DNA from: Minisyncoccota bacterium
Lineage (GTDB): Bacteria; Patescibacteriota; Minisyncoccia; Phycocordibacterales; JAGLPS01
Reading direction: 5' to 3'
Length of the DNA: 64,000 bases
Assembly: GCA_023137185.1 (NCBI GenBank)
Contig: JAGLPS010000006.1
Location: forward strand, 683-64,682
Shown: positions 5,505 through 46,862 of the stretch, piece by piece
How positions within the stretch are numbered: position 1 is the stretch's first letter
How the letters are laid out: each line of letters opens with the position of its first letter
Made by a program: the position numbers and the translations under genes
The notes under the pieces: generated by a model
Database searches by the model: none
What the model was told of the DNA's origin: nothing
The model's input: only the letters and a program-made list of their open reading frames with translations

Positions 5505-5507
5505 TTT

Positions 5508-15562: not shown

Positions 15563-15570
15563 AAACTTAA

Positions 15571-16931: not shown

Positions 16932-16938
16932 AATGCTA

Positions 16939-17045
16939 TTCTACACCACTTCCCCGCCTACGCGCGCACAAGTCTAAATTTTAGGGAATTAAGGCAAATT
17001 ATCGAGAAATTATCGAGGTTCAACCTCGATAATTTCTCGATAAAC
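16939..17045 (-). promoter_or_regulatory. Duplicated upstream region (copy 2) containing a perfect 45-nt palindrome ttatcgagaaattatcgaggtt-c-aacctcgataatttctcgataa (16999-17043) and the leaderless promoter of the NYN gene
   Basis: direct sequence comparison with 15571-15665. Confidence 0.5.
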
Positions 17046-17050
17046 ACAAA

Positions 17051-17089
17051 CACCAAACACCTCAAATACACCATTTGAGGTGTTTGGTG
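17051..17089 (-). terminator. 17-bp perfect hairpin caccaaacacctcaaat-acacc-atttgaggtgtttggtg, terminator of the 17107 gene
   Basis: followed by U-rich tract in minus orientation. Confidence 0.55.
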
Positions 17090-17106
17090 CAAAAGTGGTA
17101 ATTCTG

Positions 17107-17682: not shown

Positions 17683-17693
17683 ATTGTCTTGAA

Positions 17694-19136: not shown

Positions 19137-19142
19137 ATTATT

Positions 19143-20948: not shown

Positions 20949-20970
20949 GAGTGATTAAATTAAAATTAAA

Positions 20971-21096
20971 TTATCTCCAAAACCCCAACCCATTCTCCCT
21001 CCCCCACTTCTCAAAAGCAAAAGCGATCTCGTCTAAGTCGTCAAACTTGCGCGCTTCTTGAACATCTGATTTTTTTATAATTGAAATTTGAGGCAT
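20971..21096 (-). other. Junction repeat 2 with chimeric 41-aa mini-ORF MPQISIIKKSDVQEARKFDDLDEIAFAFEKWGRENGLGFWR (hsdS N-terminus fused to hsdM C-terminus)
   Basis: Start 2 nt after the stop of the upstream cassette gene. Its stop lies 22 nt before the OLD ATG, reproducing the native hsdM-stop/hsdS-start spacing. Confidence 0.6.
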
Positions 21097-21098
21097 AG

Positions 21099-22025
21099 TT
21101 AATTTTTAATTTTAGAAACCTCTGATGGCTCAATTTCTTTCCCTTCTGGTTTAGGGTTAAATTCTATACTTTTATAATTTTTACATTGAAATAATTGATA
21201 TTTAATAAGTTCATCAAACTTCAAATTTCCTTTTTTTAGATCTGATGGATGAATTACAATAATTAATTTTTCGCAAATCGCTTTATATTTAGATGTATCT
21301 ATAAAAGTATCTATAATTTGCTTAATAATAATTTCTCTGGTTAGCTCAGGATTTCTTCCATGTTGTGCATTTATTAGAGGAATCACAATAGATTCATCTT
21401 TACTTGAATCAGAGGAAAGAAATTCCCATAATCCATTTAAGCTAAGCATAAAATCATCTATAGAGGATTTGACTCTATCATTTTTTTGTTTCTTTGAATT
21501 TACAAGTAAATAAAACCTTTTTATTTTATTTTTAAACAATTTCTTTTTTTGCTTTTCTATTTCAATAACCTTTCCTATCTCAAAAGGAGTATCCCTAATA
21601 TTTATTTTTTCCTTTATTTTATCGTCTAGTTGTTTTGAATCATTATTAAAATAATCTTTAATTAATTTATTCTGAATACTTTTTGCTTCTTTAACATTTC
21701 CATTCAGGGATGTATCAAAATAATTATTAAACGGAACTATTTGTGAACCTTTAACATTAAAAGCATCTCCAATTTTCAACTCAATGCAAGAGTCTCTATC
21801 TCTAATTTTTATAGAATGAGATGATTTCGGATAATTTTTAAAAATTGCATATAAAAAACTTGAACCTAAAATGCACCAAAATATTAAAGGAAGATTTAAT
21901 CTTTCACTTACAGAAGAGAAAAAATATGAAATAATTTCTGTGATTAGCCACAAAAAACCAAGACAAGAAAGAAAGTCTTTAATAGCAAAACGCCAATTTT
22001 GTATCCATCTTTTTATTAAGATCAT
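21099..22025 (-). CDS. Two-TM membrane protein with ~230-aa cytoplasmic C-terminal domain of unknown family (candidate effector/sensor of the TIR cassette)
   Basis: 308 aa; two N-terminal hydrophobic helices; start overlaps the TIR gene stop (ATGA). Confidence 0.45.
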   Translation of the reverse strand: MILIKRWIQNWRFAIKDFLSCLGFLWLITEIISYFFSSVSERLNLPLIFWCILGSSFLYAIFKNYPKSSHSIKIRDRDSCIELKIGDAFNVKGSQIVPFNNYFDTSLNGNVKEAKSIQNKLIKDYFNNDSKQLDDKIKEKINIRDTPFEIGKVIEIEKQKKKLFKNKIKRFYLLVNSKKQKNDRVKSSIDDFMLSLNGLWEFLSSDSSKDESIVIPLINAQHGRNPELTREIIIKQIIDTFIDTSKYKAICEKLIIVIHPSDLKKGNLKFDELIKYQLFQCKNYKSIEFNPKPEGKEIEPSEVSKIKN

Positions 22026-22528
22026 AATCCTAGTTGCTGGTAAACTGTATCTTTGTAATGATAAGCTCCTGTTTTATCATTATTTCTAAAAGAAGAATCT
22101 GAATCAAACCAATCATCAATAGCATGTTCAATTATCTTTTGTTTAAAATTCACATGAACAGCTAATTCGTCTTTTAGTATTGTTGGACATAAATCAGAAT
22201 CCATACTTGTTTTCCCATTTAAATTTACTACAATAATCGGAATATTTCTTTTTATTGCCTGCTCAATTTCCCAACGAACAAATTTATAAAGATGTTTCGT
22301 ATTATCTCCCACAAGAAGAATAAAAACTTTCGTGTTTCTTAATCGTTCAGCAAGTTTTGCCTTAATAGTTTCTTCTGTAGAATCTGACATAAGATTATTT
22401 AAATCATGAGCATCATAAAAATTAAATGAAGTATTATCACTTTTTTTCCAAGCTTGCATTAAACGATAATAATGAATGTCATTATCTGCATCAAAAGCAA
22501 CATATGTTTTGTTTGTATAAATTGTCAT
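22022..22528 (-). CDS. TIR-like domain protein (DUF1863/ThsB-like)
   Basis: 168 aa; YVAFDADNDIHYY N-terminal strand and KVFILLVGDNTKH..WEIEQAIKRNIPIIVV pattern of bacterial TIR-like (ThsB) domains. Confidence 0.6.
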   Translation of the reverse strand: MTIYTNKTYVAFDADNDIHYYRLMQAWKKSDNTSFNFYDAHDLNNLMSDSTEETIKAKLAERLRNTKVFILLVGDNTKHLYKFVRWEIEQAIKRNIPIIVVNLNGKTSMDSDLCPTILKDELAVHVNFKQKIIEHAIDDWFDSDSSFRNNDKTGAYHYKDTVYQQLGL

Positions 22529-22567
22529 AAAAATATTTTAGATTAATAAATTAATTTTTCCAAAAAT

Positions 22568-22879
22568 TCAACTCTTCCTTTTCACAAGAGTTTTTCCTGT
22601 TTTACCTCTTCGTAATTGGACTTTCGGCATATTCTTTTTTGCGTGATCCAAAGCCTCATCATTAAAACCTTTTGTTGAAACAATTACATCTGCATGGTTT
22701 TGTTGATACGCTTTTTGTAATTGAAATTTCGTAAGAGGCTTTTTGTAATCTTTCACTTCAACTTTATCTCCTCCCTTTTTAATATCTGGATTATTTGGTC
22801 CAGCTTTTCTTGTGCCATCAATTCCTTTGGCGACTTTTTTCTCTGCTCGTTTTCCTTTTTTTGCATTGTTATCTGTCAT
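22568..22879 (-). CDS. Small basic protein with possible minimal PD-(D/E)xK motif
   Basis: 103 aa; NNPDIKKGGDKVEVKDYKKP could be PD...ExK; weak. Confidence 0.3.
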   Translation of the reverse strand: MTDNNAKKGKRAEKKVAKGIDGTRKAGPNNPDIKKGGDKVEVKDYKKPLTKFQLQKAYQQNHADVIVSTKGFNDEALDHAKKNMPKVQLRRGKTGKTLVKRKS

Positions 22880-22907
22880 ATTATTTTAAATTAAAAAATT
22901 AATAAAT

Positions 22908-23039
22908 TTATTTCCAAAAACTCAACCCATTCTCCTTCCCCCACTTCTCAAAAGCAAAAGCGATCTCGTCTAAGTCGTCAAACTTGCGTGCTTCATTGAA
23001 TATCTGTTTTTTTATAATTGAAATTTGCGGCATAGCCAT
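22908..23039 (-). other. Junction repeat 1 with chimeric 43-aa mini-ORF MAMPQISIIKKQIFNEARKFDDLDEIAFAFEKWGKENGLSFWK
   Basis: Nucleotide-level copy of the hsdM 3' end joined to the hsdS 5' start; start 1 nt after the stop of the 379-aa gene. Confidence 0.6.
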
Positions 23040-23040
23040 T

Positions 23041-24180
23041 TTAATTTATATGATAATGCTTAATTGCATTATTTCGAATAACTAAAAGATAACTTTCTGT
23101 TTTCCAGCATTGTTGATTATCACATATCTCACTAACATATTCTTTTTCATTAAAAATAACGAAGTTTATCTCTTTTAAAAATGTATTTCCACAAACAAAA
23201 TTCTTAATAAAATCTTTATTTTTTATATTTCCAATTAAATATAAAGTTTCCAAATTTGATTTTGTAAATTCCTCTATATATCTTTTGTAAGGAGCACTAC
23301 CTTGCTCATAAATTTTGTCTGTTTTCCCGATTATAATCATTCCAAATTTACAATAATTACCTAAAAATCTATTATCGGTTTCTTCATTGATTTTTCGCCT
23401 TGAATAATTATTTAAAAATTTTATTAAATTTGTAACCTCTGTAATAATTAAATCGTCTTTTCTATTATTAAAAACTTTTTCTCCTAAAAAAATCATCTCT
23501 TGAATAAAGACAGGAAAAAATAATCCTTTTTTATCAATACTTTGATATTTAACAAATAAATCATCAACTATTTTTTCTTCTATTTTTGGATGTAAAAAAT
23601 CTTCAATAAATTCTTTTACGACATCTTCTTTCTCCTCTTCAAATATTTTCTTGCCAACAAATAAATCTATAGATTCTTTTTGTTTTTCACTTATATATCT
23701 TTTTGCTTTAATTAATAAATTTTCTGCTATAAAAATCATAGTTGCATTAACAAAGTTTTTATTTTCATTATCATTTTTCCTTATTCTAACAATCATTTTT
23801 CCATTCTCTAAAAAAGATTTTGGTATTTCACTATCACTTACCCATTCCACTTTTAGTTTTATTGGCATAAAACCTTTAATTTCTCTTTTTAAAAAACCGT
23901 TAACAAAAGAATTAGTTCTACTTTGAAAATCATGCTGGATATATTTTTTCCTGATTACGGGAACTGTTTTAAAAATTTTTGATAATGCTTTATAAAATAA
24001 TGCAATAAATTTTTCAAATCTATCGGGATAAAATACAGCACAAACAAAAACTATGAAAAATAAAAACCAACCGCCGTATGCGAACATACAGTCAAAAAAA
24101 ACTTTCGCGCTTTCCCCGTCATTAAAATTTATATTAATTGGCATATTTATTTTAAATATACTAATAGTTTTTTTATACAC
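23041..24180 (-). CDS. Hypothetical protein with one N-terminal TM helix (cassette 1)
   Basis: 379 aa, Lys/Glu/Phe-rich, no recognisable motif. Confidence 0.4.
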   Translation of the reverse strand: MYKKTISIFKINMPININFNDGESAKVFFDCMFAYGGWFLFFIVFVCAVFYPDRFEKFIALFYKALSKIFKTVPVIRKKYIQHDFQSRTNSFVNGFLKREIKGFMPIKLKVEWVSDSEIPKSFLENGKMIVRIRKNDNENKNFVNATMIFIAENLLIKAKRYISEKQKESIDLFVGKKIFEEEKEDVVKEFIEDFLHPKIEEKIVDDLFVKYQSIDKKGLFFPVFIQEMIFLGEKVFNNRKDDLIITEVTNLIKFLNNYSRRKINEETDNRFLGNYCKFGMIIIGKTDKIYEQGSAPYKRYIEEFTKSNLETLYLIGNIKNKDFIKNFVCGNTFLKEINFVIFNEKEYVSEICDNQQCWKTESYLLVIRNNAIKHYHIN

Positions 24181-24380
24181 TCAGGCGAATCGCACACAAA
24201 TTTTATATCTTCTGATTTTTTAAATAAAGAATGCAAGTTTTCAACATTAATTATATTTTTGCAAAATTCACATTTTTTTCTTCCTTGTACAAAATCATCT
24301 AAAATGCCAAGCCTTTTCAGCATTCCTTTTAAATCATCATCGTATACTAGATTGATTTTCTTTTTTTCTTTTTTGAACAT
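24147..24380 (-). CDS. Small protein with C-terminal CxxC...C..C zinc-ribbon-like motif
   Basis: 77 aa; CEFCKN...CDSPEC. Confidence 0.3.
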   Translation of the reverse strand: MFKKEKKKINLVYDDDLKGMLKRLGILDDFVQGRKKCEFCKNIINVENLHSLFKKSEDIKFVCDSPECIKKLLVYLK

Positions 24381-24404
24381 ATTAATTTATTTATTTTCAA
24401 AAAA

Positions 24405-25070
24405 TTATTTTTCATCTCTCTTTTCAATAGCTTCTTTGGAATTTTCTGGTAAATCGTTATAAAAACTGTCAATTTCTTTTTGTTCTGTAATCATTTTTTC
24501 TGCTATAAAATTTAGCAATTCAAAAAGTTTCAAGACTTTTTCTGTCTCTTCTTCAAGATTTATTTCTCCTGGGTGAACCGCACCATTTCCTGTTATTCTA
24601 AGTATATCCAAAGATTTTTGAATTTGAGGATTCAACCCTTTTTTAACTAACTCCTTTATGTCATCATTTATATTTTTTCCTTTTTCACCAAGCTGTTTGC
24701 AAAGTTTTTGTAACGCTAATCTTAAAAGTGCAGCAGATGCTCGCGGAGAATCACTAAAAATATTTGCCGCTTCTAAATAATCCTTTTTAATGTCACCAGA
24801 CAAATCATCGTTAGGCAGATCAACAATCATTTTTTTAGGATATATAATTTCATTTTCAAGCCAAATTATTTTTTCGCTACAATGTTTGCATCGTGACATT
24901 TTCCATTCACTTGATAAATTCTCGTTAAACTTGCTAACACCGTAAAAATCATCTCCATAAACATGATGACCTGTAATATGTCCCCATTGTTGCTCTGCAA
25001 ATACTCCACAGTGCGGACAATGGAATTCGCCGTAATTCAATATTGGTGGATAATGTTTTTCTTTTGTCAT
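24405..25070 (-). CDS. Zinc-finger + DUF4145 domain protein
   Basis: 221 aa; CPHCG...CKHCSEK N-terminal Zn finger; C-terminal LRLALQKL...ILRITGNGAVH pattern of DUF4145; starts 21 nt after the hsdM stop. Confidence 0.55.
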   Translation of the reverse strand: MTKEKHYPPILNYGEFHCPHCGVFAEQQWGHITGHHVYGDDFYGVSKFNENLSSEWKMSRCKHCSEKIIWLENEIIYPKKMIVDLPNDDLSGDIKKDYLEAANIFSDSPRASAALLRLALQKLCKQLGEKGKNINDDIKELVKKGLNPQIQKSLDILRITGNGAVHPGEINLEEETEKVLKLFELLNFIAEKMITEQKEIDSFYNDLPENSKEAIEKRDEK

Positions 25071-25091
25071 ATTTTTATTCTTAAATTTATA

Positions 25092-27119
25092 TTATCTCCA
25101 AAAATTCAACCCATTCTCCTTCCCCCATTTCTCAAAAGCAAAAGCAATATCGTCTAAATCGTGTTTTTGTTTTAGGTGGTTATGCTCATCAAGTTTTCTT
25201 TCTCCATTTTTATCAACTTCGTAAATCTCATCCCCCGAATTATCTTTGCCTGAATTTTCACTCACCGCCATAAATATTTTATAATCATCAACCTTTGGAT
25301 TGATTTTTTCATCCCATTTCTGCACAAACAAGACAGAAGTTTTTGTTCCCGTATGCGGTTTGAAAGTATTGCCGTCAAGCCCGACCACCGCTAAAAGGCG
25401 CGCCCGCTCCATTATAAAATCCCTGATCCTTTCATCGCTCGTATTATTAAACCTTCCCTGCGGCAAGACAATCGCCATTCTTCCGCCCGGTTTTAGAAAA
25501 TCCAGATTCCTTTCAATAAACAAAATGTCTCTTGAAATATTATCAATCTGCTTGTCTTTTTTATAAGCCACTTCATAGCAAGCCGTCATCCTTTTATCTT
25601 TAATATCTCCGGCAAAAGGCGGATTCGCCATTACCAAATCAAAATTAAATTCTTTTGGATTTTTTCTGTCTTTCGCCAAATCCAGCAATCTGTAAAAACC
25701 CTCTAAATAAGTTCTGCTCCATTCCCGGTCTTTCAGTTTTTCTTCCCACCTTGTGTAATCAAGCGAATTCAAATGCAAGACATTTGTCCTGCCGTCGCCC
25801 GCAATCATATTTAAAGTCCGCGCGACACGAACCGATTTTTCGTCAAAATCAATCCCGAAAACTTTTAAGACATATTCCTTTTGCTCTTTGGTCGGTTTCT
25901 GATTTGAAAAATTGCTGAATTGCGCCTTGCCGTTGCCTTTTAATTTTTCCCAAACATTAAAAAGCGTATGTACTGTAAATCCGCAAGACCCGCAAGCCGT
26001 ATCTATCATATACTCGCTTGGCTTTGGATTAAGCATATAAACGCACATATCAATTACATTTCTTGGCGTAAAATACTGTCCTTTTTCTCCTTTGGCGGAT
26101 TTGTTGACCAGATATTCAAACGCTTCGTCAATCACCTGCAGATTGGAATTGAAGAGTTTTACATTCTGCAAAAATCCGACGCAGATTTGCAGATGGTTTT
26201 CATCCGTAATGCGAAGCGGTTCGCCTTTTTCAAAAATTCCCGGCCATTTTTCTTTGGCTTTCTGAAAAAGATTATTGATGACTTCTTTCGTATGATGCGC
26301 ATCGCCGCGACTTCTGAATTCCAGTTGCGTTAATCCTTTTATTTTAACTTTAGCCAAAATTTCTTTATCAGATAAATCAGGATTTTCTTCTCTTAGTTCT
26401 TTAAATTTCCACTCTATTTTTTGCCTATCTTCCGAGCTTTCCATTTCATCATAAAGCTTGATAAAAATCAGTTTAAAAACTTCTTCAAAAACATCCACGC
26501 CGGCATTTGCCAGAACTTCGTCCTCCATTTCCTGAATTAAAGTTTTCAAAGATTTTCTTTCTTCCTGAAGCTTGTCTTTTTGCATCAGTTCCAAATAAGT
26601 AAAAATTTCGTTTTTTACATCGTCTATTGTTTCATTCGCTTTTGGAATATCAGAAAGCGGTTCAAAATAATTAGGATCCAATCGCTCGTAATAATTTATT
26701 TCTGTTCCGTTCGTCCAAACCGCCAAAGGTGCGCCTGTCGCGTTTGTGTAGCTTTTCAACTGGTCTTTCCCATCTTTCGCTTTGTGCTTTTTAATTTCCA
26801 AAACACAATAAACGCTCGTTTTATCTTTTTTATTTAAAATAATAATATCCGCTAGCTTCTTTTCCCTGCCAAAAGAAATAGAAAATTCAACCCTTATCAA
26901 ATCAACGGGATAATTATATTCATTAAGAAGTTTATCAAGCGTTAATTGCCTCACAATCTCCTCCGGCTTTGCTTGAATGTCTTTTTCTCTTTTCAAACAT
27001 TTAATAAAATGCTTTCCTTTTTTCTCAAAAATGCTTTTCTCAACTCTGTCTATGCTTTCCGCGGAAAAAGTCGTCAAATCATATTTCCCGCCTGATTTTA
27101 TAAGTTGCGATAGATTCAT
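25092..27119 (-). CDS. hsdM: Type I restriction-modification DNA methyltransferase subunit
   Basis: 675 aa; N6-adenine MTase motifs DTACGSCGF (motif I) and NPPF (motif IV); HsdM N-terminal domain. Confidence 0.9.
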   Translation of the reverse strand: MNLSQLIKSGGKYDLTTFSAESIDRVEKSIFEKKGKHFIKCLKREKDIQAKPEEIVRQLTLDKLLNEYNYPVDLIRVEFSISFGREKKLADIIILNKKDKTSVYCVLEIKKHKAKDGKDQLKSYTNATGAPLAVWTNGTEINYYERLDPNYFEPLSDIPKANETIDDVKNEIFTYLELMQKDKLQEERKSLKTLIQEMEDEVLANAGVDVFEEVFKLIFIKLYDEMESSEDRQKIEWKFKELREENPDLSDKEILAKVKIKGLTQLEFRSRGDAHHTKEVINNLFQKAKEKWPGIFEKGEPLRITDENHLQICVGFLQNVKLFNSNLQVIDEAFEYLVNKSAKGEKGQYFTPRNVIDMCVYMLNPKPSEYMIDTACGSCGFTVHTLFNVWEKLKGNGKAQFSNFSNQKPTKEQKEYVLKVFGIDFDEKSVRVARTLNMIAGDGRTNVLHLNSLDYTRWEEKLKDREWSRTYLEGFYRLLDLAKDRKNPKEFNFDLVMANPPFAGDIKDKRMTACYEVAYKKDKQIDNISRDILFIERNLDFLKPGGRMAIVLPQGRFNNTSDERIRDFIMERARLLAVVGLDGNTFKPHTGTKTSVLFVQKWDEKINPKVDDYKIFMAVSENSGKDNSGDEIYEVDKNGERKLDEHNHLKQKHDLDDIAFAFEKWGKENGLNFWR

Positions 27120-27200
27120 AATTTTTTGTTAAAAGTTTCGTAATAAATTTATTTTGATTGATACTTTTGTTTCTTTGAAATTTGCTATATTTTTATTTAA

Positions 27201-27710
27201 TTAAATCATCCCTCCAGAGGCGGGCAGGCAGGCGAAATACCGAGAGCGTCCGCGATTTTTTAACTGTGTCAATGGTGGGGTTTGGCGTTGCGCGTCGCCG
27301 ACCGCTTTCATAAACTCATCGTAGTTTTTGGCAATGCGTTTGCGATTTATTGTATACCCTTGAACAAGATATTCTTTTAATATCTTGTTCGCCCACTTCC
27401 TAAATTCAACAGCTTGAGCGGAATTTGTTCTATATCCTACGGATAAAATAACATCAAGAGAATAAAAAGAAACCGGCTTATCTGAATTTGCAATGTGCAT
27501 TTTTTGCACATTGCTTTTTTCACTTATTTCTCCAGATTTAATGATCGTTCTAATATGCTTTGTGATCACAGATCGTTCTACACTAAAAACTTCAGCAATC
27601 TGTGCCTGTGTCGCCCATATATTTTCATGCTCAAAATCGCCTCGAAGTTCAATCGCTCCGTTTTTTGCTTGATAAATAATTATATTGTTTGCTGTTTTTT
27701 TCTTTTTCAT
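27201..27710 (-). CDS. RhuM-family (virulence protein RhuM / DNA-binding) protein
   Basis: 169 aa; IYQAKNGAIELRGDFEHENIWATQAQIAEVFSVERSVITKHIR matches the RhuM family commonly found beside hsdM. Confidence 0.7.
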   Translation of the reverse strand: MKKKKTANNIIIYQAKNGAIELRGDFEHENIWATQAQIAEVFSVERSVITKHIRTIIKSGEISEKSNVQKMHIANSDKPVSFYSLDVILSVGYRTNSAQAVEFRKWANKILKEYLVQGYTINRKRIAKNYDEFMKAVGDAQRQTPPLTQLKNRGRSRYFACLPASGGMI

Positions 27711-27889
27711 AATTTATATTTCGCTTTAAACATCCCTCCAAAGGCGGGCAGGCAGGCGAAACGCCGAGCGCGTCCGCAATTTTTTAACTGTGTCAATAGT
27801 GGGGTTTGGCGTTGCGCGTCGCCGACTACTTCGGCGTCTTTGCGCATAATGTTTTGGATATTTTTGATGATGTTTTGTATTTCGGACAT
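27707..27889 (-). pseudogene. Duplicated 3' fragment of the RhuM gene (~100 nt) fused to unrelated N-terminal sequence
   Basis: 27722-27820 is ~90% identical to 27208-27305; encodes ...VGDAQRQTPLLTQLKNCGRARRFACLPAFGGM. Confidence 0.5.
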
Positions 27890-27890
27890 A

Positions 27891-28985
27891 TTATTTCCCT
27901 CTTTGAGCTTCTGTTATCGCGCGATCAACCATAAATCGCACGGCTTCATTCATATGAAGATTTTCAATCTTTATAGATGGATGTTTTTTCTGAAAAACCC
28001 GATATATTTCATCCGCAAATGCCTGACCAACCATAGGAACATTTTCATAATCCAACGCAACAACCTTGAACTTTTCAAGACCGGAAAGAACACGCCGCGC
28101 TTGCGAGCGCGATATATGCACTCCCCCCGCAATATATAGACGTACATACACTTCAGTCTTATCAAAACCGTACTCACCACCAACACCCGTGTCAGTATAT
28201 TTACGAAAAATATCATTGAGATGATGCCTGTCGTCTATGTTGATACGAAATGTAACTTTTGTCCCCTGTTTTTGACCTTTAACTTTTTTTACAAATATAT
28301 CGTCTATTTTATTGTTTGCAATAAATTGGTACCCGTAACTATCGAGAATAAATTCATCACCAACTTTTGACGTAAAGAAAATACCTTCACCGGAATGAAG
28401 TTTTGGCTCAGTTGTCATCTTGCCCTTGAGAAGGTCTTGTATTGCTTCCATTTCCGATTTAAGATGTCGTTTTTTCATAATATTACGATATACTCCTACA
28501 CCAAAATCATCGACGGCAAACGACAACTCATCGTCATTTAATGAAACCGAAACATTAATTTTCTTTGAACCGGAGTGTTCAATTGCATTGTTCAGCATCT
28601 CAGAAAAAGCGTATGTAAAAATACTTTTTATATTTTCCGAAAATCGACTAAATGGAAGAAATCTGTGTTCTATGTCATCAAGAACGATATGTTCTTCAAG
28701 ACCTTTGTTAACAAGTTGTCTGGTATATATATTTGGAGTAACATCCGGATGCTCTTGAATGTATTCCACCGTCGCATACCTCGCCGAACGCGTTGAACCA
28801 AGTTTTATAAGCTTTTTTTCTTCAACAAGATTAGATATGAGCTTGTTCGCATATTGCCGAGAAACTCCAAAAGAACCCGCGATATTACGGCTTTTAATTA
28901 TCCCTTTTTCCTGCGCTATTTTAAGAATGTGTTCCGTGTTTATCATATGTAAACTGATTGTAAACAATCGGTTTACAATTGTCAA
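27891..28985 (-). CDS. wHTH + GHKL-type ATPase (HATPase_c) + STAS-like (DUF4325) protein
   Basis: 364 aa; N-terminal HTH, N-box EMLNNAIEHSG, C-terminal STAS-like region. Confidence 0.5.
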   Translation of the reverse strand: MTIVNRLFTISLHMINTEHILKIAQEKGIIKSRNIAGSFGVSRQYANKLISNLVEEKKLIKLGSTRSARYATVEYIQEHPDVTPNIYTRQLVNKGLEEHIVLDDIEHRFLPFSRFSENIKSIFTYAFSEMLNNAIEHSGSKKINVSVSLNDDELSFAVDDFGVGVYRNIMKKRHLKSEMEAIQDLLKGKMTTEPKLHSGEGIFFTSKVGDEFILDSYGYQFIANNKIDDIFVKKVKGQKQGTKVTFRINIDDRHHLNDIFRKYTDTGVGGEYGFDKTEVYVRLYIAGGVHISRSQARRVLSGLEKFKVVALDYENVPMVGQAFADEIYRVFQKKHPSIKIENLHMNEAVRFMVDRAITEAQRGK

Positions 28986-29005
28986 CTAATTGTAAGCAAC
29001 TTCTG

Positions 29006-29194
29006 CTATGCAGTATACAACTGCCTCTCAATCTCCTCCGGCTTCGCCTGAATATCGCTCTTTCTTTTCAGGCATTTAACAAAAAACTTTTTGTTTTTCT
29101 CAAAAATCTTTTTTTCAACCCTGTCTATACTTTCCTCGGAAAAAGTCGTCAAATCATATTTCCCGCCTGATTTTATAAGTTGTGATAAATTCAT
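29006..29194 (-). pseudogene. Duplicated 5' fragment of hsdM (first 57 codons, ~235-nt repeat including the upstream region)
   Basis: MNLSQLIKSGGKYDLTTFSEESIDRVEKKIFEKNKKFFVKCLKRKSDIQAKPEEIERQL vs the hsdM N-terminus; 29000-29233 approx equals 26925-27158. Confidence 0.7.
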
Positions 29195-29238
29195 AATTTT
29201 TTGTTAAAAGTTTCGTAATAAATTTATATTGCCTATAA

Positions 29239-30678
29239 TCACATCAAAAGAAAATATTTTAATGGAATTTTCAACGCGTTTGCTTCTGCATTATATTCTA
29301 AAACATCAGTTCCTTCTGAAACAACAATGCCACAAGTCGCTTTTACTTTTTCTGCTGTCTGCGTTACCTGCTTATATTCCTTTTTATTCATTCCGACCTC
29401 AAGCACGATTTTGTTTTCTCCACTGCTTAATATAAAATCAGCCCCGCCTTTCGCGCTGTCATAAGTAAGAGAAAAAGACGGCTTTTTGTCGCACAAACGA
29501 TAAAGATACATTCCAATCAGATCTTCCAGAAGTTTTCCGCGCGCGTTTTGTTCCGTTATGACATTGCCAATTGTTTTGTAATACATCGCGCGAAATGCCG
29601 GCGAAGAAAAGAGATATTTTGACGGTTTTTGCGTTACCTGTTTAAAATGAGAGCCGTGCGGATATACGCGGTGTAAAATTTCCGTTTGTTCAAGGACGGA
29701 AAAAATTTCTGCTATTTTGGGACGAGAAATGCCGAATTTTTCTGCTAGTGTCGTAAAATTCAAAACATCCATATCCGCCACGGCATACAAAATCGCCGAA
29801 ATTCTTCCGATAATATCAGACGAAAGCCCTCGCATTTGCGGAATATCTTTATTGATTACTCGCTCAAGAGATTTATTTATTTGGTCATAAACCAAAGCTT
29901 CATTTTGAAGCGCAATCATAAACGGCAATGAACCGTAATGAAGATAATTTTCAAAATCTAACCGGCTGATGCCATGATAATACTCGTTTATTTTCTGTTC
30001 CGATTTTTTTAGCGCGTTAAATACTTCTCCGGCATTTCGTCCGCTAAGAATAATCTCTCTTAACTTTTGCGATAACCCCTTAATTTCGTATTTGTTTCTT
30101 TTGATTTTAATAAATTCCGTGAATGAAAGCGGATAAATTCTTTCATAAATGGCGCGTCTGGCAATGTCGGAATTGCTGTTTATAAGAGCGGCTGCCGATC
30201 CTGTTGAAAATATAAAGACATTATCCGCACGGTCGTAAATTGTTTTAAGAATCGCTCCCCATTTTTCGTCATACTGCACTTCGTCTAAAAACAAAAACAA
30301 AGGTTTATCCAAGTTTGTGATTGACCGACCGATTATTTCTTCGAAAATATTTATAACTTCATTAATATTACTTCCAAGAGTTTGCGTGATTTCATCAACA
30401 GAAAGAATTAAAAAGTACCCGTCAATATTTTTCTTGGCGTAATACAGCTGATACATAATTGTTGTCTTGCCGGCTCCGCGCAAACCGGTAAGTGCCACCC
30501 AGCGATAAGATTTATTGCCGCCGAGGAATTGGTCAAAATGAGACTGTATCCGTATAAAAATATTTCTGTTTGGCCTTTTTTTGTTTTGCGTGTCAAAAAC
30601 ATACGCCCGCCCGCGAAAATCGGCTTGAGCAATTTGGTCGTTTATAAATTCTTTGATTTTTTCTTTATTTACAGGCAT
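29239..30678 (-). CDS. AAA+ ATPase with C-terminal DUF4143
   Basis: 479 aa; Walker A GLRGAGKTT, Walker B FLFLDEVQ, typical COG1373 architecture. Confidence 0.75.
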   Translation of the reverse strand: MPVNKEKIKEFINDQIAQADFRGRAYVFDTQNKKRPNRNIFIRIQSHFDQFLGGNKSYRWVALTGLRGAGKTTIMYQLYYAKKNIDGYFLILSVDEITQTLGSNINEVINIFEEIIGRSITNLDKPLFLFLDEVQYDEKWGAILKTIYDRADNVFIFSTGSAAALINSNSDIARRAIYERIYPLSFTEFIKIKRNKYEIKGLSQKLREIILSGRNAGEVFNALKKSEQKINEYYHGISRLDFENYLHYGSLPFMIALQNEALVYDQINKSLERVINKDIPQMRGLSSDIIGRISAILYAVADMDVLNFTTLAEKFGISRPKIAEIFSVLEQTEILHRVYPHGSHFKQVTQKPSKYLFSSPAFRAMYYKTIGNVITEQNARGKLLEDLIGMYLYRLCDKKPSFSLTYDSAKGGADFILSSGENKIVLEVGMNKKEYKQVTQTAEKVKATCGIVVSEGTDVLEYNAEANALKIPLKYFLLM

Positions 30679-30885: not shown

Positions 30886-30985
30886 ACACCCCCCAAGCCG
30901 CCCCCTAGGGGGCGGCTTTGGGTTTTTTGCAAGGCCATGAGCTTGTTGAATGGCTCCCCTCTTGGACAAGTTCAGAACTTCAGAA
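30886..30985. repeat. Repeat R-beta copy 1: terminator hairpin (aagccgcccc-ctag-ggggcggctt + T-run) followed by ttgcaaggccatgagcttgttgaatggctcccc...gttcagaact
   Basis: Similar to 32810-32922 and partially 35795-35842. Confidence 0.6.
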
Positions 30986-31112
30986 TTTTTCAAGGTTTCT
31001 TTTAAGGTCAAACCTTGAAGTTGTTGAAGATAGCTATTCCGCCTAATCAATGATATATCTAATATAGTTAGTACCTTGAAGTCCTTAATTGAAAAAACTA
31101 AAGGAGGTAAAA

Positions 31113-32651
31113 ATGAAACTAAAACTGTCAGACGGCAACACTTGGCCGCTTGCGCGTTTTATCGCGCCTGTCTATCCAGAAGTCAATATCTTTACTGGAA
31201 GCAGAATCACTCCACTTGGGTTAGTAAATATCGCCACAGCCGCAAGCAAAATTTGGGGCTGGAGAATAGAAATCATTGATGAAAACAATTATCGCGGACC
31301 ATGCGATAAAAAAGGCTTGCCAGACCACGAAAAACTACAAAAAGAAAACCCTGCATCAATAGTTAGTTTCTACTGTGGACTTACTTCCACAATGGATCGA
31401 GTTTTCGCACTATCCAAGTTTTATCGTAAACAAGGCGCGTTTAATATCGCCGGTGGATGGCACGTTCATTTTTGCCCAGATGAAGCTTTGAACAATGACT
31501 TTGATGTAGTTGTTCACGGCGAAGGGGAAATGGTTGTTCGCGACATTCTCAAAGTTTTAAAAAGCGGAAATAACCTCTCCAATATTCCTGGAATTTCTTT
31601 CTGGGATAATGGGATGCAAAAAACTAATCCTCCAACAAGGCTTGAACTGCAGAATCTAAGTGATTTACCTTATCCAGACTTCGGCATAATACGGTACGCA
31701 CGAAAGATTAAAGTTTATCCGATTGGCCGCGTTCGTGGCTGCGGAATGAACTGTGAGTTTTGCAGCGTTAAAGGGAAACCCCGCTGGGCGGACACTGCTT
31801 ATGTCTTCAATGTTGTGAAGTGGCTAGTTGATACGAGAAGGGCGCGACGCTTTTTTATTGTTGATGACCGACTTGAAGAAAATCGCGAGGGCATCCTTTC
31901 CTTTTTCAAAATGATTAGCGACAAATACAACAGTAGATTGGAATTCACAGTCCAAATCAGATTGGAAACAGCGAAAGATACCGAGCTTTTGGAATCAATG
32001 AGAAAGGCTGGTGTTAGAGTAGTATGCGTTGGCTATGAATCACCGATTGCCGAAGATCTAAAAGCTATGCATAAAGGGTTGTCAACCAAAAAAATGGTTG
32101 AGTGGACATTAATCCTACGCCGTTACTTCTGGGTGCACGGAATGTTCATTTTCGGATACCCAAACAAGGAGTCTTCAACGCTTAGTGTTCTTGAAATGGT
32201 AAAGCGCTATAAGACATTCATTCACACGGCAAAAATCAGCAGTATTCAAATCCTTCACCCAGTACCGCTTGTAGGAACAGAGCTTAGAGCAAGACTGAAA
32301 AAAACCGGCAGAATCTTCCCTCTAAATCTGGTGCCGTGGAGCAAGTACGACGGCAACTATGCCTGCTTTCCGCCAGACAATATGAGTCTGTCGGAACTCC
32401 AAGACACACCTATTAAGTTGATGAATTGGTTTTACAGTAAGTGGAGTTTTTGGAGAATTCCATACAGGACTCTGATTTTCCCGATCCATTATCTCATCAC
32501 TGGCTGGCATCACTGGTATGATAGTTGGTTAAGAGATATTGTGAAATACGGAGGTCGTCGCATCCTCACTAAATGGTTGAGAAAACACAAGAGAGATGAT
32601 TTTGTTCCAAAGTTGAAGGATTATGCTAAAAACCAGTTGAATATTCAATAG
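31113..32651 (+). CDS. B12-binding domain radical SAM protein (class B rSAM-like)
   Basis: 512 aa from the ATG with a perfect SD (aaaggaggt); N-terminal B12-binding Rossmann-like region; radical SAM CxxxCxxC (GCGMNCEFCS). Confidence 0.7.
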   Translation: MKLKLSDGNTWPLARFIAPVYPEVNIFTGSRITPLGLVNIATAASKIWGWRIEIIDENNYRGPCDKKGLPDHEKLQKENPASIVSFYCGLTSTMDRVFALSKFYRKQGAFNIAGGWHVHFCPDEALNNDFDVVVHGEGEMVVRDILKVLKSGNNLSNIPGISFWDNGMQKTNPPTRLELQNLSDLPYPDFGIIRYARKIKVYPIGRVRGCGMNCEFCSVKGKPRWADTAYVFNVVKWLVDTRRARRFFIVDDRLEENREGILSFFKMISDKYNSRLEFTVQIRLETAKDTELLESMRKAGVRVVCVGYESPIAEDLKAMHKGLSTKKMVEWTLILRRYFWVHGMFIFGYPNKESSTLSVLEMVKRYKTFIHTAKISSIQILHPVPLVGTELRARLKKTGRIFPLNLVPWSKYDGNYACFPPDNMSLSELQDTPIKLMNWFYSKWSFWRIPYRTLIFPIHYLITGWHHWYDSWLRDIVKYGGRRILTKWLRKHKRDDFVPKLKDYAKNQLNIQ

Positions 32652-32739
32652 GACTTTTTTAATTTGTGTTTAAAAGCCGTCCCGAGCTTTATCGAGGGAC
32701 GGCTTTTATTTTTTCTTTATATGAAAAAGCGCGTTATGC

Positions 32740-32922
32740 AACAAACGCCGAACATACAATTTGGCTCCGCAATCAAAACATCAACAAACTTTTGAAATTA
32801 TTTTGCCGAACCCCAAAGCCGCCCCTTAAGGGGCGGCTTTGGGGAATTTGTTTTTGCAAGGCCATGAGCTTGTCGAATGGCTCCCCCAACTGGATGCGTT
32901 CAGAACTCTGGATTGGGTAGAA
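32740..32922. repeat. Repeat R-alpha (caacaaacgccgaacatacaatttggctcc) plus R-beta copy 2 (terminator 32812-32856 then ggccatgagcttgtcgaatggctcccccaactggatgcgttcagaactctggattggg)
   Basis: R-alpha recurs at 35917-35947; R-beta at 30886-30985 and 35795-35842. Confidence 0.6.
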
Positions 32923-33286
32923 ATAAAGAACGATTTACAGTTTAGCAATATATTAGACCTATCCCCCAAACTAGCATTTCAACACTAATTTTTATTTTTC
33001 AACAACTCATCAATATCGTAACCTATGTATTTTCTTTTACTTACAGAGCTTAGTCCCAAAAGCTTTAGTGTTTCAACTTTCAGTTTATATCCACTCCACT
33101 CACCGAATTTTTTTATTATTTTATGATATTATAAAAAATAAATGAGTCGTACTCAACCAATTAATAACCACAAAAAACGATAAACAATTCAAAATTTACA
33201 CCCAAAACTATTATAGTAATTTTAATTATTGTGATTGCTGTTGTGTTTCTAGGTATTAAACTTTTTAAAACATCTGAGACCACTGA

Positions 33287-33688
33287 TTGGGAAACCTCTA
33301 CGCAAATGATAAATTTGAGCTTGGATACCCCCAAGACTTTACCATCACCATGGAAAGTAGCGCCGGATTCCGCGCCTGTTCTTCTGATAGTAATACTTGT
33401 GTAGAGATTAGTCCCATGGACTCCCAGTGGAATTCATTTGACGACATGGTAAAAGAATGGAAAGAAACAAACCCCGAAACAGCTGATGACACAAAAGTTT
33501 TTAGAGTTTCTAGAAAAGAAGCTTTTTCTATCAAACAAGCTGAAGGAAATGATGTTGTCATAAACACCATTATAAATTCTTCTCACCCAGACATGGTTTT
33601 TATCACAATAACTAAACAAGGTGATAGCGAAATAGATTTAGATAATTTTAACAAACAAGTACTTTCTACTTTCAAGGCTGTAAAATAG
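33287..33688 (+). CDS. Hypothetical secreted or membrane-anchored protein; the N-terminal TM segment appears to lie in a different frame (possible frameshift near 33285)
   Basis: Frame-2 ORF 133 aa; an upstream frame-0 segment encodes ...KTIIVILIIVIAVVFLGIKLFKTSETTDWE with no in-frame ATG. Confidence 0.3.
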   Translation: MGNLYANDKFELGYPQDFTITMESSAGFRACSSDSNTCVEISPMDSQWNSFDDMVKEWKETNPETADDTKVFRVSRKEAFSIKQAEGNDVVINTIINSSHPDMVFITITKQGDSEIDLDNFNKQVLSTFKAVK

Positions 33689-33825
33689 ATTACTTTTCGT
33701 AAACTAACGAAGGTGCTCACATTTATTGCCACAACCCTTTTGGCAAGACGTGTATTCTTCTTTTAATCCACAGCCACTGTCCCAAATAACTAACTAACTA
33801 TTAACACTAAGTGTTGATAGTTGAA

Positions 33826-33852
33826 AAAGCCCCCCTAGGGGGGCTTTTTTTA
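33826..33852. terminator. Bidirectional intrinsic terminator aaaagcccccc-tagg-ggggcttttttt
   Basis: perfect hairpin flanked by A/T runs between convergent genes. Confidence 0.65.
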
Positions 33853-35148
33853 TTACTTAATCCGGCCTATGAAGCTCTTAAGAATTGACATGTGCTGACC
33901 TGGAATCTCTCCACCAGTACAAGCTTCTGCTGGATTAGCATCATTCGTTGTCTCCACAATAAACTGATGTCCACCATAAAAAAATCTACTTCCAATAATT
34001 ACCTTCCCATAAGGACCCGATGAGCAATCCTCGCTACATTCAACTCGCTGCTTAAAGTAAAGAGTATTTTGACAAACCTTAATATCATTTATAGTTGAGC
34101 TATATCGTGTCTTTTTAATAACAGATCTACTTCCCACATAATAATCCACACATCCATCACTTTCATTCCAGTCATTTAATCCGAACGGTATCATCTCTAA
34201 AATTTTAATTTCGGTAGAAATTACTCTCTTACTGTCAGTTTCATATCCTGAAGCACCTTTGCATCTACCTTCAACAACCTCATTAACAGCATCCCATCCT
34301 GTTTCCAACTTCATAATTCCAGCACCAGTTCCACCACTATTTTTATAATCAGACAAAACTGCTTTTATCACTCCGCGATAACCTCCTTGGGATGCTACTG
34401 AAGGCTGTTTCGGAGTTTGCGTTTGTGTTTTCGCCTGTACTGGTGGTTCGTCAGGTTCTTCAAGTTCTTTCTGTACTTCTTGGTTTTTTAAAGCTTCCAA
34501 TCTATCAAGCCTTCTTTGTTCTGCCCTGGCTTTTAATTGCTCCCGATATGCATTAGCTTGTTCTTGTCTAGCAATCAAAGCGTCAATTTCACTACCAGCA
34601 TCTTTTAGTTCTCCTCTCATTCGAGCAATCTCATCAATCTCAGCTTTGTGTCTGGCAAGTTCAAATAAATCTACATTATCTCTAGACCCCTTCAGCATCT
34701 CCCAAAATTTCAAGTCTGATTCAGACATACCATCACCCGAAGCCGCGCCTACAACATTGTCTTTTACTCCAAGAATGTTCATGACATGCCCGATGCCTTC
34801 TCCAATCTTACCAGCAGTTCCAAGCACTGTTCCCAAAGAAAGACCCACTCCTTCTTTCAAAAGATCTGATGAATAGGACCGCAGACCTTCTCTTTCAATA
34901 TCTTTTGACACTTGAAGTAATCTTAATGACTCTTGCACAGCAAGATCTCCTGATTTGCCTAAATTTGGAGCTTGTTTTGTGAGATACTGAACTTGTTCTT
35001 GAATCCCGTCAACTATTCTATTTGTCTGAACTTTGTCATATATAACTTCTCCTCCTTTAGCAACAGAAAGTGCGAGTGCAAGCCAGCTAATTGCCAACAA
35101 AGTTCCCGCCACAACCGCTCCACTTTGATTAGATTTGTTTCTTTTCAT
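33853..35148 (-). CDS. Secreted/membrane-anchored protein with coiled-coil centre and Cys-rich C-terminal domain
   Basis: 431 aa; N-terminal hydrophobic helix, Q/E/R-rich coiled coil, about 9 Cys in the C-terminal 170 aa. Confidence 0.5.
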   Translation of the reverse strand: MKRNKSNQSGAVVAGTLLAISWLALALSVAKGGEVIYDKVQTNRIVDGIQEQVQYLTKQAPNLGKSGDLAVQESLRLLQVSKDIEREGLRSYSSDLLKEGVGLSLGTVLGTAGKIGEGIGHVMNILGVKDNVVGAASGDGMSESDLKFWEMLKGSRDNVDLFELARHKAEIDEIARMRGELKDAGSEIDALIARQEQANAYREQLKARAEQRRLDRLEALKNQEVQKELEEPDEPPVQAKTQTQTPKQPSVASQGGYRGVIKAVLSDYKNSGGTGAGIMKLETGWDAVNEVVEGRCKGASGYETDSKRVISTEIKILEMIPFGLNDWNESDGCVDYYVGSRSVIKKTRYSSTINDIKVCQNTLYFKQRVECSEDCSSGPYGKVIIGSRFFYGGHQFIVETTNDANPAEACTGGEIPGQHMSILKSFIGRIK

Positions 35149-35150
35149 AT

Positions 35151-35678
35151 TTATTGAACTTTTATTGGAAAGGTTTGTATATATATAACTTCATCGCCTT
35201 CTACGGCAACTTTTATTTGCTCGTTGAAATCATAGACTTTGGCATTTTCCATGAGAAGTTCCGGTACAGAAACAACTGTACTTGGATCCGCTCCAATTAC
35301 TTTTTTAACTTGTTCAAAAGTCATTCCTTCTTTAAATTTATCTGGAGAAATTGGAAAAGGATCGGCTTCGTCAATAAATGAGATGTCCTGATCATTGGAA
35401 AATTCACCATCTATAAAAGAGAAAGACCGTCCATGTCTCTCATAACTCAATGCCTCATATCTTGCTGTTTTGTATTCTTCATCAACAATCATCTCTCCGA
35501 AGACAATGGTGTAACTCGTAGGGTTACCAAAATCTTTAATCAACACATCTGTGTCGTTAGAAAAAAGAAAAGATAAGAAATAAGAAGACCAGTTAAATGT
35601 CATGTAGACAAGCAATGCCAGTAAAAAAAGCTTCCATTTTTTCGTTTCTTTTATTTTGTTTAAAATATACATAAGCAA
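35151..35678 (-). CDS. Membrane-anchored small protein (N-terminal TM, extracytoplasmic domain)
   Basis: 175 aa; stop 3 nt upstream of the next gene's start. Confidence 0.45.
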   Translation of the reverse strand: MLMYILNKIKETKKWKLFLLALLVYMTFNWSSYFLSFLFSNDTDVLIKDFGNPTSYTIVFGEMIVDEEYKTARYEALSYERHGRSFSFIDGEFSNDQDISFIDEADPFPISPDKFKEGMTFEQVKKVIGADPSTVVSVPELLMENAKVYDFNEQIKVAVEGDEVIYIQTFPIKVQ

Positions 35679-35794
35679 ATCAAAATTAACTTATTAAAAC
35701 TACTAATATTATACCAAAACTTAAGAGGTTCGAACACGAGGAAAAGTCCTGTTCGGGGTAAAACAAAATACCGCTAGTTATAGCGATATTTTAG

Positions 35795-35842
35795 GTTGGC
35801 TCCCCCAACTGGATGAGTTCAGAACTTTGGATTGGGGGAAGA
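35795..35842. repeat. Repeat R-beta copy 3 (ggttggctcccccaactggatgagttcagaactttggattggggg)
   Basis: matches 32868-32918. Confidence 0.55.
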
Positions 35843-35916
35843 TAAAATTGGAAATGAGGAGATTAGATTTTGTTTTATCAAACCTGTTTTGAGCAAACTC
35901 TTCTTGTAACAAACTC

Positions 35917-35960
35917 GCAACATACAATTTGGCTCCCCCGGTAGGATTCGGCTACAAGTT
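35917..35960 (-). repeat. R-alpha copy 2 fused to a 23-nt remnant of the tRNA-Asn 3' end including CCA (cgaatcctaccgggggagccaaa in minus orientation): att-like scar
   Basis: 18 nt identical to the T-arm/acceptor 3' strand of the tRNA at 36097-36168. Confidence 0.55.
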
Positions 35961-36096
35961 TTTGCTCGCCGTCGCTCGCAAAACTTTCAGCCCACCCCTC
36001 GCGGTTTTGTCTGCTGACAAAACATCGCTGCGGTCTTCAAATCTTCCCCGCGCGCAAAGTAGTTTGCGCGCTCGGACTCGCACTCGCAGACTCGTG

Positions 36097-36168
36097 CTCC
36101 CCCGGTAGGATTCGAACCTACGACCAATCGCTTAACAGGCGAGTGCTCTACCACTGAGCTACAGGGGA
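36097..36168 (-). tRNA. tRNA-Asn (anticodon GTT)
   Basis: 72 nt; acceptor tcccctg/cggggga (one GU), D-arm gctc-agtggta-gagc, anticodon loop ctGTTaa, T-arm gtagg-ttcgaat-cctac; CCA not encoded. Confidence 0.85.
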
Positions 36169-37624: not shown

Positions 37625-37730
37625 ATAATTTTATTTTTTAACTTTTTGGATAAGAGATATAGACCTAATTCTCTATAATAGCAGATTCTAAAAAATATAT
37701 CTCTCTCCCACAGCAGAAACCGCAGTCATT

Positions 37731-37779
37731 AACTTGGGAGCTCCAACTTGGAAGCCGAGCTTCCAAGTGTGGTGTAATT
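37731..37779 (+). repeat. P1 repeat family copy 4
   Basis: aacttgggagctccaacttggaagccgagcttccaagtgtggtgtaat. Confidence 0.6.
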
Positions 37780-37909
37780 TAGGTTTTTGGACAAATAGTG
37801 AAATTAAATTCTTGTGTAATCTATGGGCGAAGACCTTTAAATATAAAGTTTACCGTCCGCGAACACCCCGCCGTAAGCGGACGGGGTGTTCTGGTTGCTT
37901 GCAATAAAT

Positions 37910-41773: not shown

Positions 41774-41922
41774 ACTTGGAAGCCGTAACTTGGAAGCTAA
41801 CTTGGAAGCTCGGCTTCCAAATAACGGCTTCCAAATAAGAGCCTTAAAATGTGGTGTAATATGTTTTTAACTTGGAAGCCGAGCTTCCAAGTCTGGTGTA
41901 GAGCTTCCAAGTGTGGTGTAAT
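41774..41922 (+). repeat. P1 repeat family copies 5a/5b (two tandem units, about 150 nt)
   Basis: cacttggaagccgtaacttggaagctaacttggaagctcggcttccaa...aaaatgtggtgtaat...cttggaagccgagcttccaag...agcttccaagtgtggtgtaat. Confidence 0.6.
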
Positions 41923-46754: not shown

Positions 46755-46862
46755 CTCGGAAGCTCTTGGAAGCGGAGCTTCCAAGAGCTTCCGAGTAACA
46801 AGTAAAAACATATTACACCACATTTTGAGGCTCCCATTTGGAAGCCGAGCTTCCAAGTTGGC
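46755..46862 (-). repeat. P1 repeat family copy 6, including a perfect 19+3+19 palindrome ctcggaagctcttggaagc-gga-gcttccaagagcttccgag
   Basis: attacaccacatttt...tttggaagccgagcttccaag. Confidence 0.6.

Follow-up and report, generated by a model that had tools for sequence, protein, structure and literature searches.

Class-B radical S-adenosylmethionine (SAM) enzymes, which carry a cobalamin (B12) domain, fall into more than 100 sequence groups, the largest of which are still structurally unexplored according to a 2026 review. The same review notes that the 'BchE-like' group includes non-methylating enzymes with hydrophobic substrates. Among the members of solved structure, the methyl-coenzyme M reductase glutamine C-methyltransferase of methanogens (MgmA, also QCMT) has a two-domain architecture of B12 Rossmann and radical SAM domains, a macromolecular substrate and a stand-alone gene, while CysS, TsrM, TokK and OxsB are encoded in biosynthetic clusters. 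Here, a gene of this class (31113-32651, plus strand) was analysed in a stretch of 64,000 nucleotides, referred to as the window, from a Minisyncoccota bacterium of the Candidate Phyla Radiation (CPR, or Patescibacteria; assembly GCA_023137185.1, contig JAGLPS010000006.1, positions 683 to 64,682). The gene lies beside a dense defence island and between two copies of a repeat, R-beta, downstream of a tRNA-Asn gene. It is probably a native, vertically inherited, stand-alone gene of an uncharacterised class-B subfamily that is not functionally tied to the defence island, and the R-beta repeats are probably recombination scars. The enzyme class is known; what is new here is a member of an uncharacterised, large and conserved subfamily.

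The first-pass annotation of this DNA had described a 512-aa B12-binding radical SAM protein, and the open reading frame (ORF) call, the Pfam domains and the CxxxCxxC motif bear this out. The Pfam B12-binding domain (residues 29-144) scored 35.8 bits against a cut-off of 32.1, and Radical_SAM 35.1 bits against 29.5. The motif reads C210-x3-C214-x2-C217, and its three cysteines are invariant in 29 homologues, the alignment of which contains 94 invariant columns. An AlphaFold2 (AF2) model built on 29 homologues (pLDDT 87.5, pTM 0.86) comprises a Rossmann-type B12 domain (about residues 29-150), a radical SAM core with C210, C214 and C217 (about residues 200-400) and a helical C-terminal domain (residues 426-511), which is Trp-rich and basic, with an isoelectric point (pI) of about 10; the mean pI of the family is 9.3. 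A Foldseek search with this model returned CysS, TsrM, MgmA, AprD4, OxsB and TokK (E 1e-16 to 4e-19, 13-20% identity), and the model aligns with TsrM, TokK, OxsB, MgmA and CysS across about 450 or more columns. The protein is thus an intact class-B radical SAM enzyme, and this class assignment is secure.

Classification into radical SAM subfamilies, which the first-pass annotation had proposed, confirmed membership of class B but placed the protein below the cut-off of every curated NCBIfam family, all scores being 5-10 times too low. The highest scores were those of BchE (TIGR02026, 76.5 against 481), with an alignment over nearly the entire protein (residues 31-462), and HpnJ (TIGR03471, 74.4 against 578), followed by MgmA (TIGR04014, 59.9 against 360), HpnR (TIGR04367, 58.0 against 650) and the ladderane radical SAM protein (TIGR04072, 55.8 against 360). 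MgmA is the best match of solved structure by sequence (9CCB, E 1.8e-14) as well as one of the top Foldseek matches (TM 0.73 when normalised by target length, 20% identity), and shares with the window protein the domain architecture and the stand-alone gene. It differs in that the host of the window protein is a CPR bacterium and no methanogen, that no mcr genes were found in any locus examined, and that the window protein alone carries an extra basic, Trp-rich helical C-terminal domain of about 85 residues. BchE and HpnJ, in spite of their scores, remain 6-8 times below their cut-offs, and no (bacterio)chlorophyll or hopanoid pathway genes were present in any CPR locus examined. CysS, TsrM, TokK and OxsB have the overall fold in common with the window protein (Foldseek E 4e-19 to 3e-16, TMq 0.60-0.65) at only 13-18% identity, and, unlike these clustered genes, the window family is always solitary.

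The family is widespread. A search of protein databases returned 1,684 homologues, the best 120 of which match the window protein at 57-78% identity and are without exception full-length, at about 510 aa; those of the 120 with a named source come nearly all from Patescibacteria (Pacebacteria, Falkowbacteria, Nealsonbacteria, Staskawiczbacteria). When each GTDB species was represented by a single genome, relatives were encoded in at least 580 stretches, among them full-length members in Omnitrophota, Planctomycetota, Thermodesulfobacteriota and Lentisphaerales (42-46% identity). In a library of representatives at 50% identity, 447 clusters matched at E<=1e-30: the closest CPR members, the query ones included, form one cluster at 864 bits, after which graded full-length relatives follow. 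The adjacent core gene for an S8 protease has best non-self matches of only 69%, 66% and 63%, so that the radical SAM family is at least as constrained as this core gene. By these comparisons, the window gene belongs to a large, tightly conserved and uncharacterised class-B subfamily of CPR and other anaerobes. No member of the family was found in IMG/VR viral contigs, where the best match was 27% identical, and a search of the literature on the family in CPR or Omnitrophota gave nothing relevant. In some Omnitrophota and Planctomycetota (L044, L056, L068, L077; L numbers denote the loci and contigs compared), paralogues occur as tandem or near-tandem pairs.

The window gene has its own signals for translation and termination. 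A perfect Shine-Dalgarno sequence, AGGAGG (31102-31107), reported by the first-pass annotation, does lie 5 nt before the ATG. Downstream, the gene is followed by an intrinsic terminator of its own (32671-32714, plus strand), in which a 13-bp stem precedes UUUUAUUUUUU; the stem and U tract (32671-32708) have a folding energy of -22.5 kcal/mol and a z-score of -4.5. As this terminator is canonical, the downstream repeat is not needed to end transcription of the gene. The description of the gene as the only one on the plus strand holds nearly: from about 16.1 to 44 kb, the sole further plus-strand call is a 90-aa ORF at 33416-33688. Cobalamin use by the organism, also claimed earlier, was confirmed by a PduO-type adenosyltransferase (1069-1647) and an nrdJ-type ribonucleotide reductase (1647-3923), and cobalamin is therefore available to the cell.

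The absence of partner genes beside the gene was likewise confirmed, and it bears on the suggestion that the enzyme is a maturase of ribosomally synthesised and post-translationally modified peptides (RiPPs), acting as a C-methyltransferase or cross-linker on a small precursor peptide, whose gene could be close by or elsewhere. Weak similarity to the RiPP enzymes ApyD (NF050148, 50.6 bits) and TIGR03975 (47.3 bits) might point in this direction, but the cut-offs of these families are 750 and 282. The check for precursor peptides gave no credible small ORF in the window, where the candidates adjoining the gene all overlap hairpin repeats, and no conserved short ORF beside the CPR homologues; a protease, transporter or RiPP recognition element partner was found in none of the loci surveyed. 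A further point in favour of a peptide substrate is a small conserved protein ending in VFVF that adjoins the homologue in four Omnitrophota loci and has no Pfam match. In three of them it has 83-85 aa, ends in KV[VI]FVF and lies 11-23 nt upstream of the homologue (L050 3055-3306, L054 7693-7944, L072 7693-7950), while in L053 a shorter ORF lies downstream; this protein is a possible partner or substrate of the enzyme in that Omnitrophota subclade. As a reading of the window gene, a RiPP maturase is very unlikely.

The genomic context of the family was surveyed by calling and clustering the ORFs in 85 homologue loci, and each neighbour family is shared by 15 of them at most. The usual contexts are housekeeping ones: the arrangement holA-rpsT(-)-X-ruvA-murE-like is retained by one CPR clade in 11-13 loci, and elsewhere the homologue is found with holB/L21, pth/topA/dprA, an ornithine transcarbamylase gene or an IS200 transposase. 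In the closest relative with DNA available (L088, 78% identity), the gene is again a lone plus-strand gene amid minus-strand genes. Being solitary there and in other loci, the gene owes its monocistronic state to the family and not to the particular locus in the window. A conserved non-defence context, which the first-pass annotation had named as an argument against a defence role, is therefore present, although a clear assignment to a housekeeping function was not obtained.

The defence role itself was suggested by the adjacent low-GC island (14831-30678, minus strand), which lies to the left of the gene and is no part of it. The island encodes a zeta toxin (14831-15562), a NYN protein (16329-16931), a type I S subunit (17694-19136), an AriA/OLD-like AAA_15 ATPase (19143-20948), the Thoeris proteins ThsA-Macro (21099-22025) and ThsB-TIR (22022-22528), PD-T7-4/DUF4145 (24405-25070), a type I restriction-modification/MAD2-like methyltransferase (MTase, 25092-27119), RhuM (27201-27710), an HTH-HATPase-DUF4325 protein (27891-28985) and the PDC-S01 protein AAA_14-DUF4143 (29239-30678). 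Position directly beside so dense an array might mark the radical SAM enzyme as part of the anti-phage island, for instance as a modified-nucleotide producer or an effector, and in L001 a RhuM gene lies about 1 kb from the homologue. However, the protein matches none of the models of PADLOC-DB v2, whereas 7 of the 9 other island proteins tested alongside it do (matches to PDC-S01, RhuM-type PDC-S05/S23, type I MTase/mad2, PD-T7-4, ThsA/ThsB and AriA/Old). The gene reads from the other strand and has a Shine-Dalgarno sequence and a terminator to itself, its composition is unlike that of the island, and defence-type genes (the RhuM-like cluster) occur at only 4 of the 85 loci, among them the window and L001/L005, which are one genome. 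Identities of 57-78% across CPR are also atypical of defence genes. A role in defence is thus largely refuted.

The composition of the gene agrees with a native origin. Its GC content and GC content at third codon positions (GC3) are 0.424 and 0.431, close to those of core genes in the window (0.41-0.47 and 0.35-0.42; nrdJ 0.44/0.42, S8 protease 0.47/0.42, enolase 0.42/0.35). The genes of the left-hand defence island range over 0.25-0.38 and 0.14-0.37, and two genes without family match on the right have 0.33-0.40 and 0.27-0.29. Compositional deviation is seen at 14.8-30.7 kb and 32.9-35.8 kb but not in the segment with the radical SAM gene, which is a native-looking islet amid two foreign-looking segments. 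The core-like GC and GC3, the conservation, the housekeeping contexts elsewhere and the lack of PADLOC and IMG/VR matches together argue for the native reading.

The first-pass annotation had also placed the gene between two repeats of about 100 nt, each with an intrinsic terminator. Both copies exist and both contain a GC-rich hairpin followed by Ts, but the T run of the second is weak, the gene's own terminator had not been separated from the repeat, and further partial copies near the tRNA-Asn gene had been missed. The upstream copy, R-beta-1 (30890-30985, plus strand), consists of a hairpin (30895-30918) with a T run, GCAAGGCCATGAGCTTGTTGAA, the 9-nt core TGGCTCCCC (30951-30959) and a diverged tail resembling a tRNA 3' end. 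The downstream copy, R-beta-2 (32811-32927, plus strand), has a 15-bp GC hairpin (32811-32844), the same core (32878-32886) and a tRNA-3'-end-like tail. Positions 30890-30959 align with 32811-32886 in 76 columns at 85.5% identity; a longer alignment of about 97 columns gives 81%. A 36-nt stretch within the repeat occurs exactly twice in the window and not once in 100 shuffles. The repeat was not found in 84 homologue loci, and the sequence downstream of tRNA-Asn in the relative L052 has no similarity to it.

The remaining copies lead towards the tRNA-Asn(GTT) gene (36096-36168, minus strand). A partial copy with core and tRNA-like tail (35797-35846, plus strand) is 95% identical to 32878-32917, and a hybrid junction (35919-35950, plus strand) joins a left arm identical to 32751-32768, the core (35930-35938) and a fragment of the tRNA-Asn 3' end; this fragment (35932-35950) is an exact 19-nt copy of 36096-36114. 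The 18-nt segment AACATACAATTTGGCTCC at 32751-32768 (plus strand), which is identical to 35919-35936, holds a truncated core. In total, TGGCTCCCC is present in four copies (at 30951, 32878, 35797 and 35930, all on the plus strand) against 0.19 expected; all four follow the 3' end of tRNA-Asn at distances of up to 5.2 kb and are oriented like the tRNA. Its reverse complement, GGGGAGCCA, corresponds to the acceptor 3' strand plus CCA, so the core resembles a tRNA 3' end. The arms around the cores form a mosaic: the left arm at 30951 is that of 32878, the right arm at 32878 is that of 35797 (95% over 40 nt), and the core at 35930 combines the left arm found at 32751-32768 (exact over 18 nt) with the tRNA fragment on its right. 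Site-specific recombination at tRNA-derived att sites leaves traces of this kind, with arms reshuffled about a shared core. The junctions also coincide with compositional breaks, and the 40-nt repeat (32878-32917 and 35797-35836, 95%) brackets a 2.9-kb segment of low GC3 (32928-35796, minus strand). The three genes of this segment (33853-35148 and 35151-35678 on the minus strand, 33416-33688 on the plus strand) have no family match, and searches of PHROGs and IMG/VR with its genes gave nothing. The low-GC island, too, holds a degenerate copy close to its left edge (15659-15694), with an exact match of 15 nt.

These features suggest that the radical SAM gene sits in a variable region associated with tRNA-Asn, and that the R-beta repeats, each a tRNA-3'-end-like core plus hairpin, are probably the scars of recombination junctions left by foreign DNA that inserted on the left (the defence island) and on the right (the 2.9-kb segment). 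The region resembles genomic islands that target tRNA genes in its exact 19-nt duplicate of the tRNA-Asn 3' end, in the same-orientation direct repeats that bound low-GC segments and in its cargo of defence genes. It differs from them in the lack of an integrase gene among the ORFs scanned, in repeat tails that have diverged from the tRNA and in the native composition of the segment that bears the radical SAM gene. Between the tRNA-Asn gene and the duplicate of its 3' end lies a GC-rich stretch of 143 nt (35953-36095) with several short inverted repeats and no ORF.

Some of these observations could be accounted for without any link to the tRNA, if the repeats were genome-specific terminator hairpins, similar to repetitive extragenic palindromes (REP) or miniature inverted-repeat transposable elements, that chanced to flank the gene. 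Both copies fold into two plus-strand hairpins (z -4.6 and -5.9), and the window holds other repeated hairpin families, such as AACTTGGAAGC..GCTTCCAAGT at 8 or more places and TCTGCCGAGCCCC..GGGGCTCGGCAGA. R-beta, however, has only two full copies in 64 kb, its partial copies are all gathered in the 5.2 kb that follow tRNA-Asn and share one orientation, and one junction carries an exact tRNA 3' fragment. Neither did exact-pattern scans of metagenome contigs find the repeat, nor has Rfam a family for it at gathering or permissive thresholds, where the matches were sub-threshold and driven by the hairpins. We therefore regard chance hairpins as a doubtful explanation.

A second alternative accepts the tRNA link and takes the gene itself as cargo: the 1.9 kb between the two repeat copies would be a small integrative cassette, probably from another CPR genome, that site-specific recombination captured at tRNA-Asn-like att cores and that forms one of the modules of a tandem island array. 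Repeats with the core TGGCTCCCC in the same orientation do bracket both the gene and the next 2.9-kb segment, and the core also stands beside the exact tRNA-Asn 3' duplicate. The position of the gene differs among even the closest relatives, and contigs of the same species, assembled from other samples of the same study, break within the repeat zone (L089 at 32656, L087 at 32840, L090 at 35889, next to tRNA-Asn), which is consistent with repeat-induced assembly breaks or strain heterogeneity. On the other hand, the GC and GC3 of the gene are core-like, unlike both flanks, no integrase was found in the window ORFs scanned, the family is missing from IMG/VR viral contigs, and in one CPR clade the gene keeps a stable place amid core genes. 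The identity between the two repeat copies is only 81-86%, and no repeats flank the homologue in the 8 other genomes searched. Acquisition of the gene as a cassette is accordingly judged unlikely, and we retain the reading of a native gene between recombination scars.

By analogy with TsrM, TokK, MgmA and CysS, the [4Fe-4S] cluster bound by C210, C214 and C217 would reductively cleave SAM, the resulting 5'-deoxyadenosyl radical would remove hydrogen from an unactivated substrate carbon, and a base-off cobalamin in the N-terminal Rossmann domain would then deliver a methyl group. Alternatively, the enzyme might perform a non-methylating radical rearrangement, as BchE or HpnJ do; sequence does not yet allow these outcomes to be distinguished (2026 review).

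The substrate is most likely a housekeeping cellular molecule. RNA or a ribonucleoprotein is a tentative candidate, lipid is a possible second choice, and other substrates take up the remainder. As to RNA, genes for RRM proteins (L042, L045, L083, L065), for cold-shock domain (CSD) proteins (L068, L078) and for DEAD-box helicases (L069, L078, L048, L077, L044) lie near the homologue in non-CPR loci; 10 of 11 such genes are within two genes of it, with some gaps of 18-33 nt. A MiaB-like methylthiotransferase is encoded nearby in three loci, rpsT adjoins the homologue in one CPR clade, and the proteins are basic. As to lipid, PlsC-type acyltransferases occur near the homologue in 6-7 loci, the best NCBIfam similarities include BchE, HpnJ, HpnR and the ladderane radical SAM protein, and the C-terminus is Trp-rich. 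The bacterial membrane-spanning-lipid synthase Mss was considered as an identity for the protein and rejected, since Mss is a homologue of Tes; Tes-type enzymes are not known to be of the B12 class.

Several points weigh against this overall interpretation. No experiment or curated family assigns a function to the protein, and that it binds cobalamin is deduced solely from its fold; AprD4, which is among the structural matches, possesses this domain too and yet does not bind cobalamin (2026 review). The RNA-related neighbours are limited to the non-CPR branch of 42-46% identity; their distribution there is phylogenetically clustered, and they may stem from co-regulation, as in a cold-shock regulon, and not from a common pathway. 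The position of the gene inside an array of tRNA-like cores would also fit acquisition as cargo. No integrase domain was detected in 50 window ORFs scanned, which makes the case for recombination scars circumstantial; the lack of a counterpart of the repeat in Rfam and metagenome contigs and the other terminator-like hairpin families of the window also count against it. Finally, no strain variant without the flanking segments was found: the only other contigs (L086, L087, L089, L090) are 99.8-100% identical and have an identical layout.

Repeats are also frequent elsewhere in the window. The genome-specific palindromic hairpin family AACTTGGAAGC(N3)GCTTCCAAGT, often followed by GTGGTGTAAT, occupies at least 8 intergenic sites on both strands (4527-4576, 5506-5584, 10138-10200, 37729-37800, 41796-41922, 46803-46868, 52920-52996 and 53651-53718) and looks like REP-like or terminator-like elements; the TCTGCCGAGCCCC..GGGGCTCGGCAGA family is a second set of repeated intergenic hairpins. 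Three paralogous blocks of about 600 nt (46886-47490, 52984-53618, 53798-54420; 66-90% identity) each contain a small plus-strand gene (46975-47421, 53056-53454 and 53833-54351, respectively) with internal periodic repeats of about 130 nt.

Within the defence island, a module of about 95-130 nt (74-93% identity) lies between or at the ends of the minus-strand genes (19079-19137, 20964-21097, 22901-23034, 25085-25178). The 5' end of the S-subunit gene consists of one copy, the MTase gene overlaps with another at its 3' end, and NCBI annotates one as a 41-aa coding sequence; the module may be a recombination linker or shuffling module. Further direct repeats of 95-213 nt and 88-98% identity (26944-27156 and 29019-29231; 27201-27307 and 27725-27831; 15570-15664 and 16938-17032) bracket single genes or gene pairs (RhuM/HATPase, FtsK-gamma/NYN), and the island thus appears to be built from repeat-bounded modules. 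The occurrence of Thoeris in a CPR genome is perhaps worth a separate look.

Given that CPR bacteria have tiny genomes with few cofactor-dependent enzymes, a conserved enzyme that combines B12, SAM and an Fe-S cluster stands out, and the family offers a well-delimited target with a confident structural model. For annotation, the lesson is that an adjoining defence island is no evidence of a defence role, while the tRNA-Asn-linked repeat mosaic illustrates how variable DNA accretes around native CPR genes, here in a window where no integrase was found. There is a modest chance that the family hides a new housekeeping modification. In its boldest and rather improbable form, this idea would make the family the first case, outside methanogens, of a cobalamin-dependent radical SAM enzyme acting on a housekeeping macromolecule, most plausibly rRNA, tRNA or a ribosome-associated protein, a reading that draws on the RRM, CSD and DEAD-box genes directly beside the Omnitrophota, Planctomycetota and Thermodesulfobacteriota homologues, the rpsT synteny in one CPR clade, the basic pI and the very strong conservation. 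If this were true, genome-reduced CPR bacteria, which are unable to make B12, would have an essential and hitherto unrecognised need for scavenged cobalamin.

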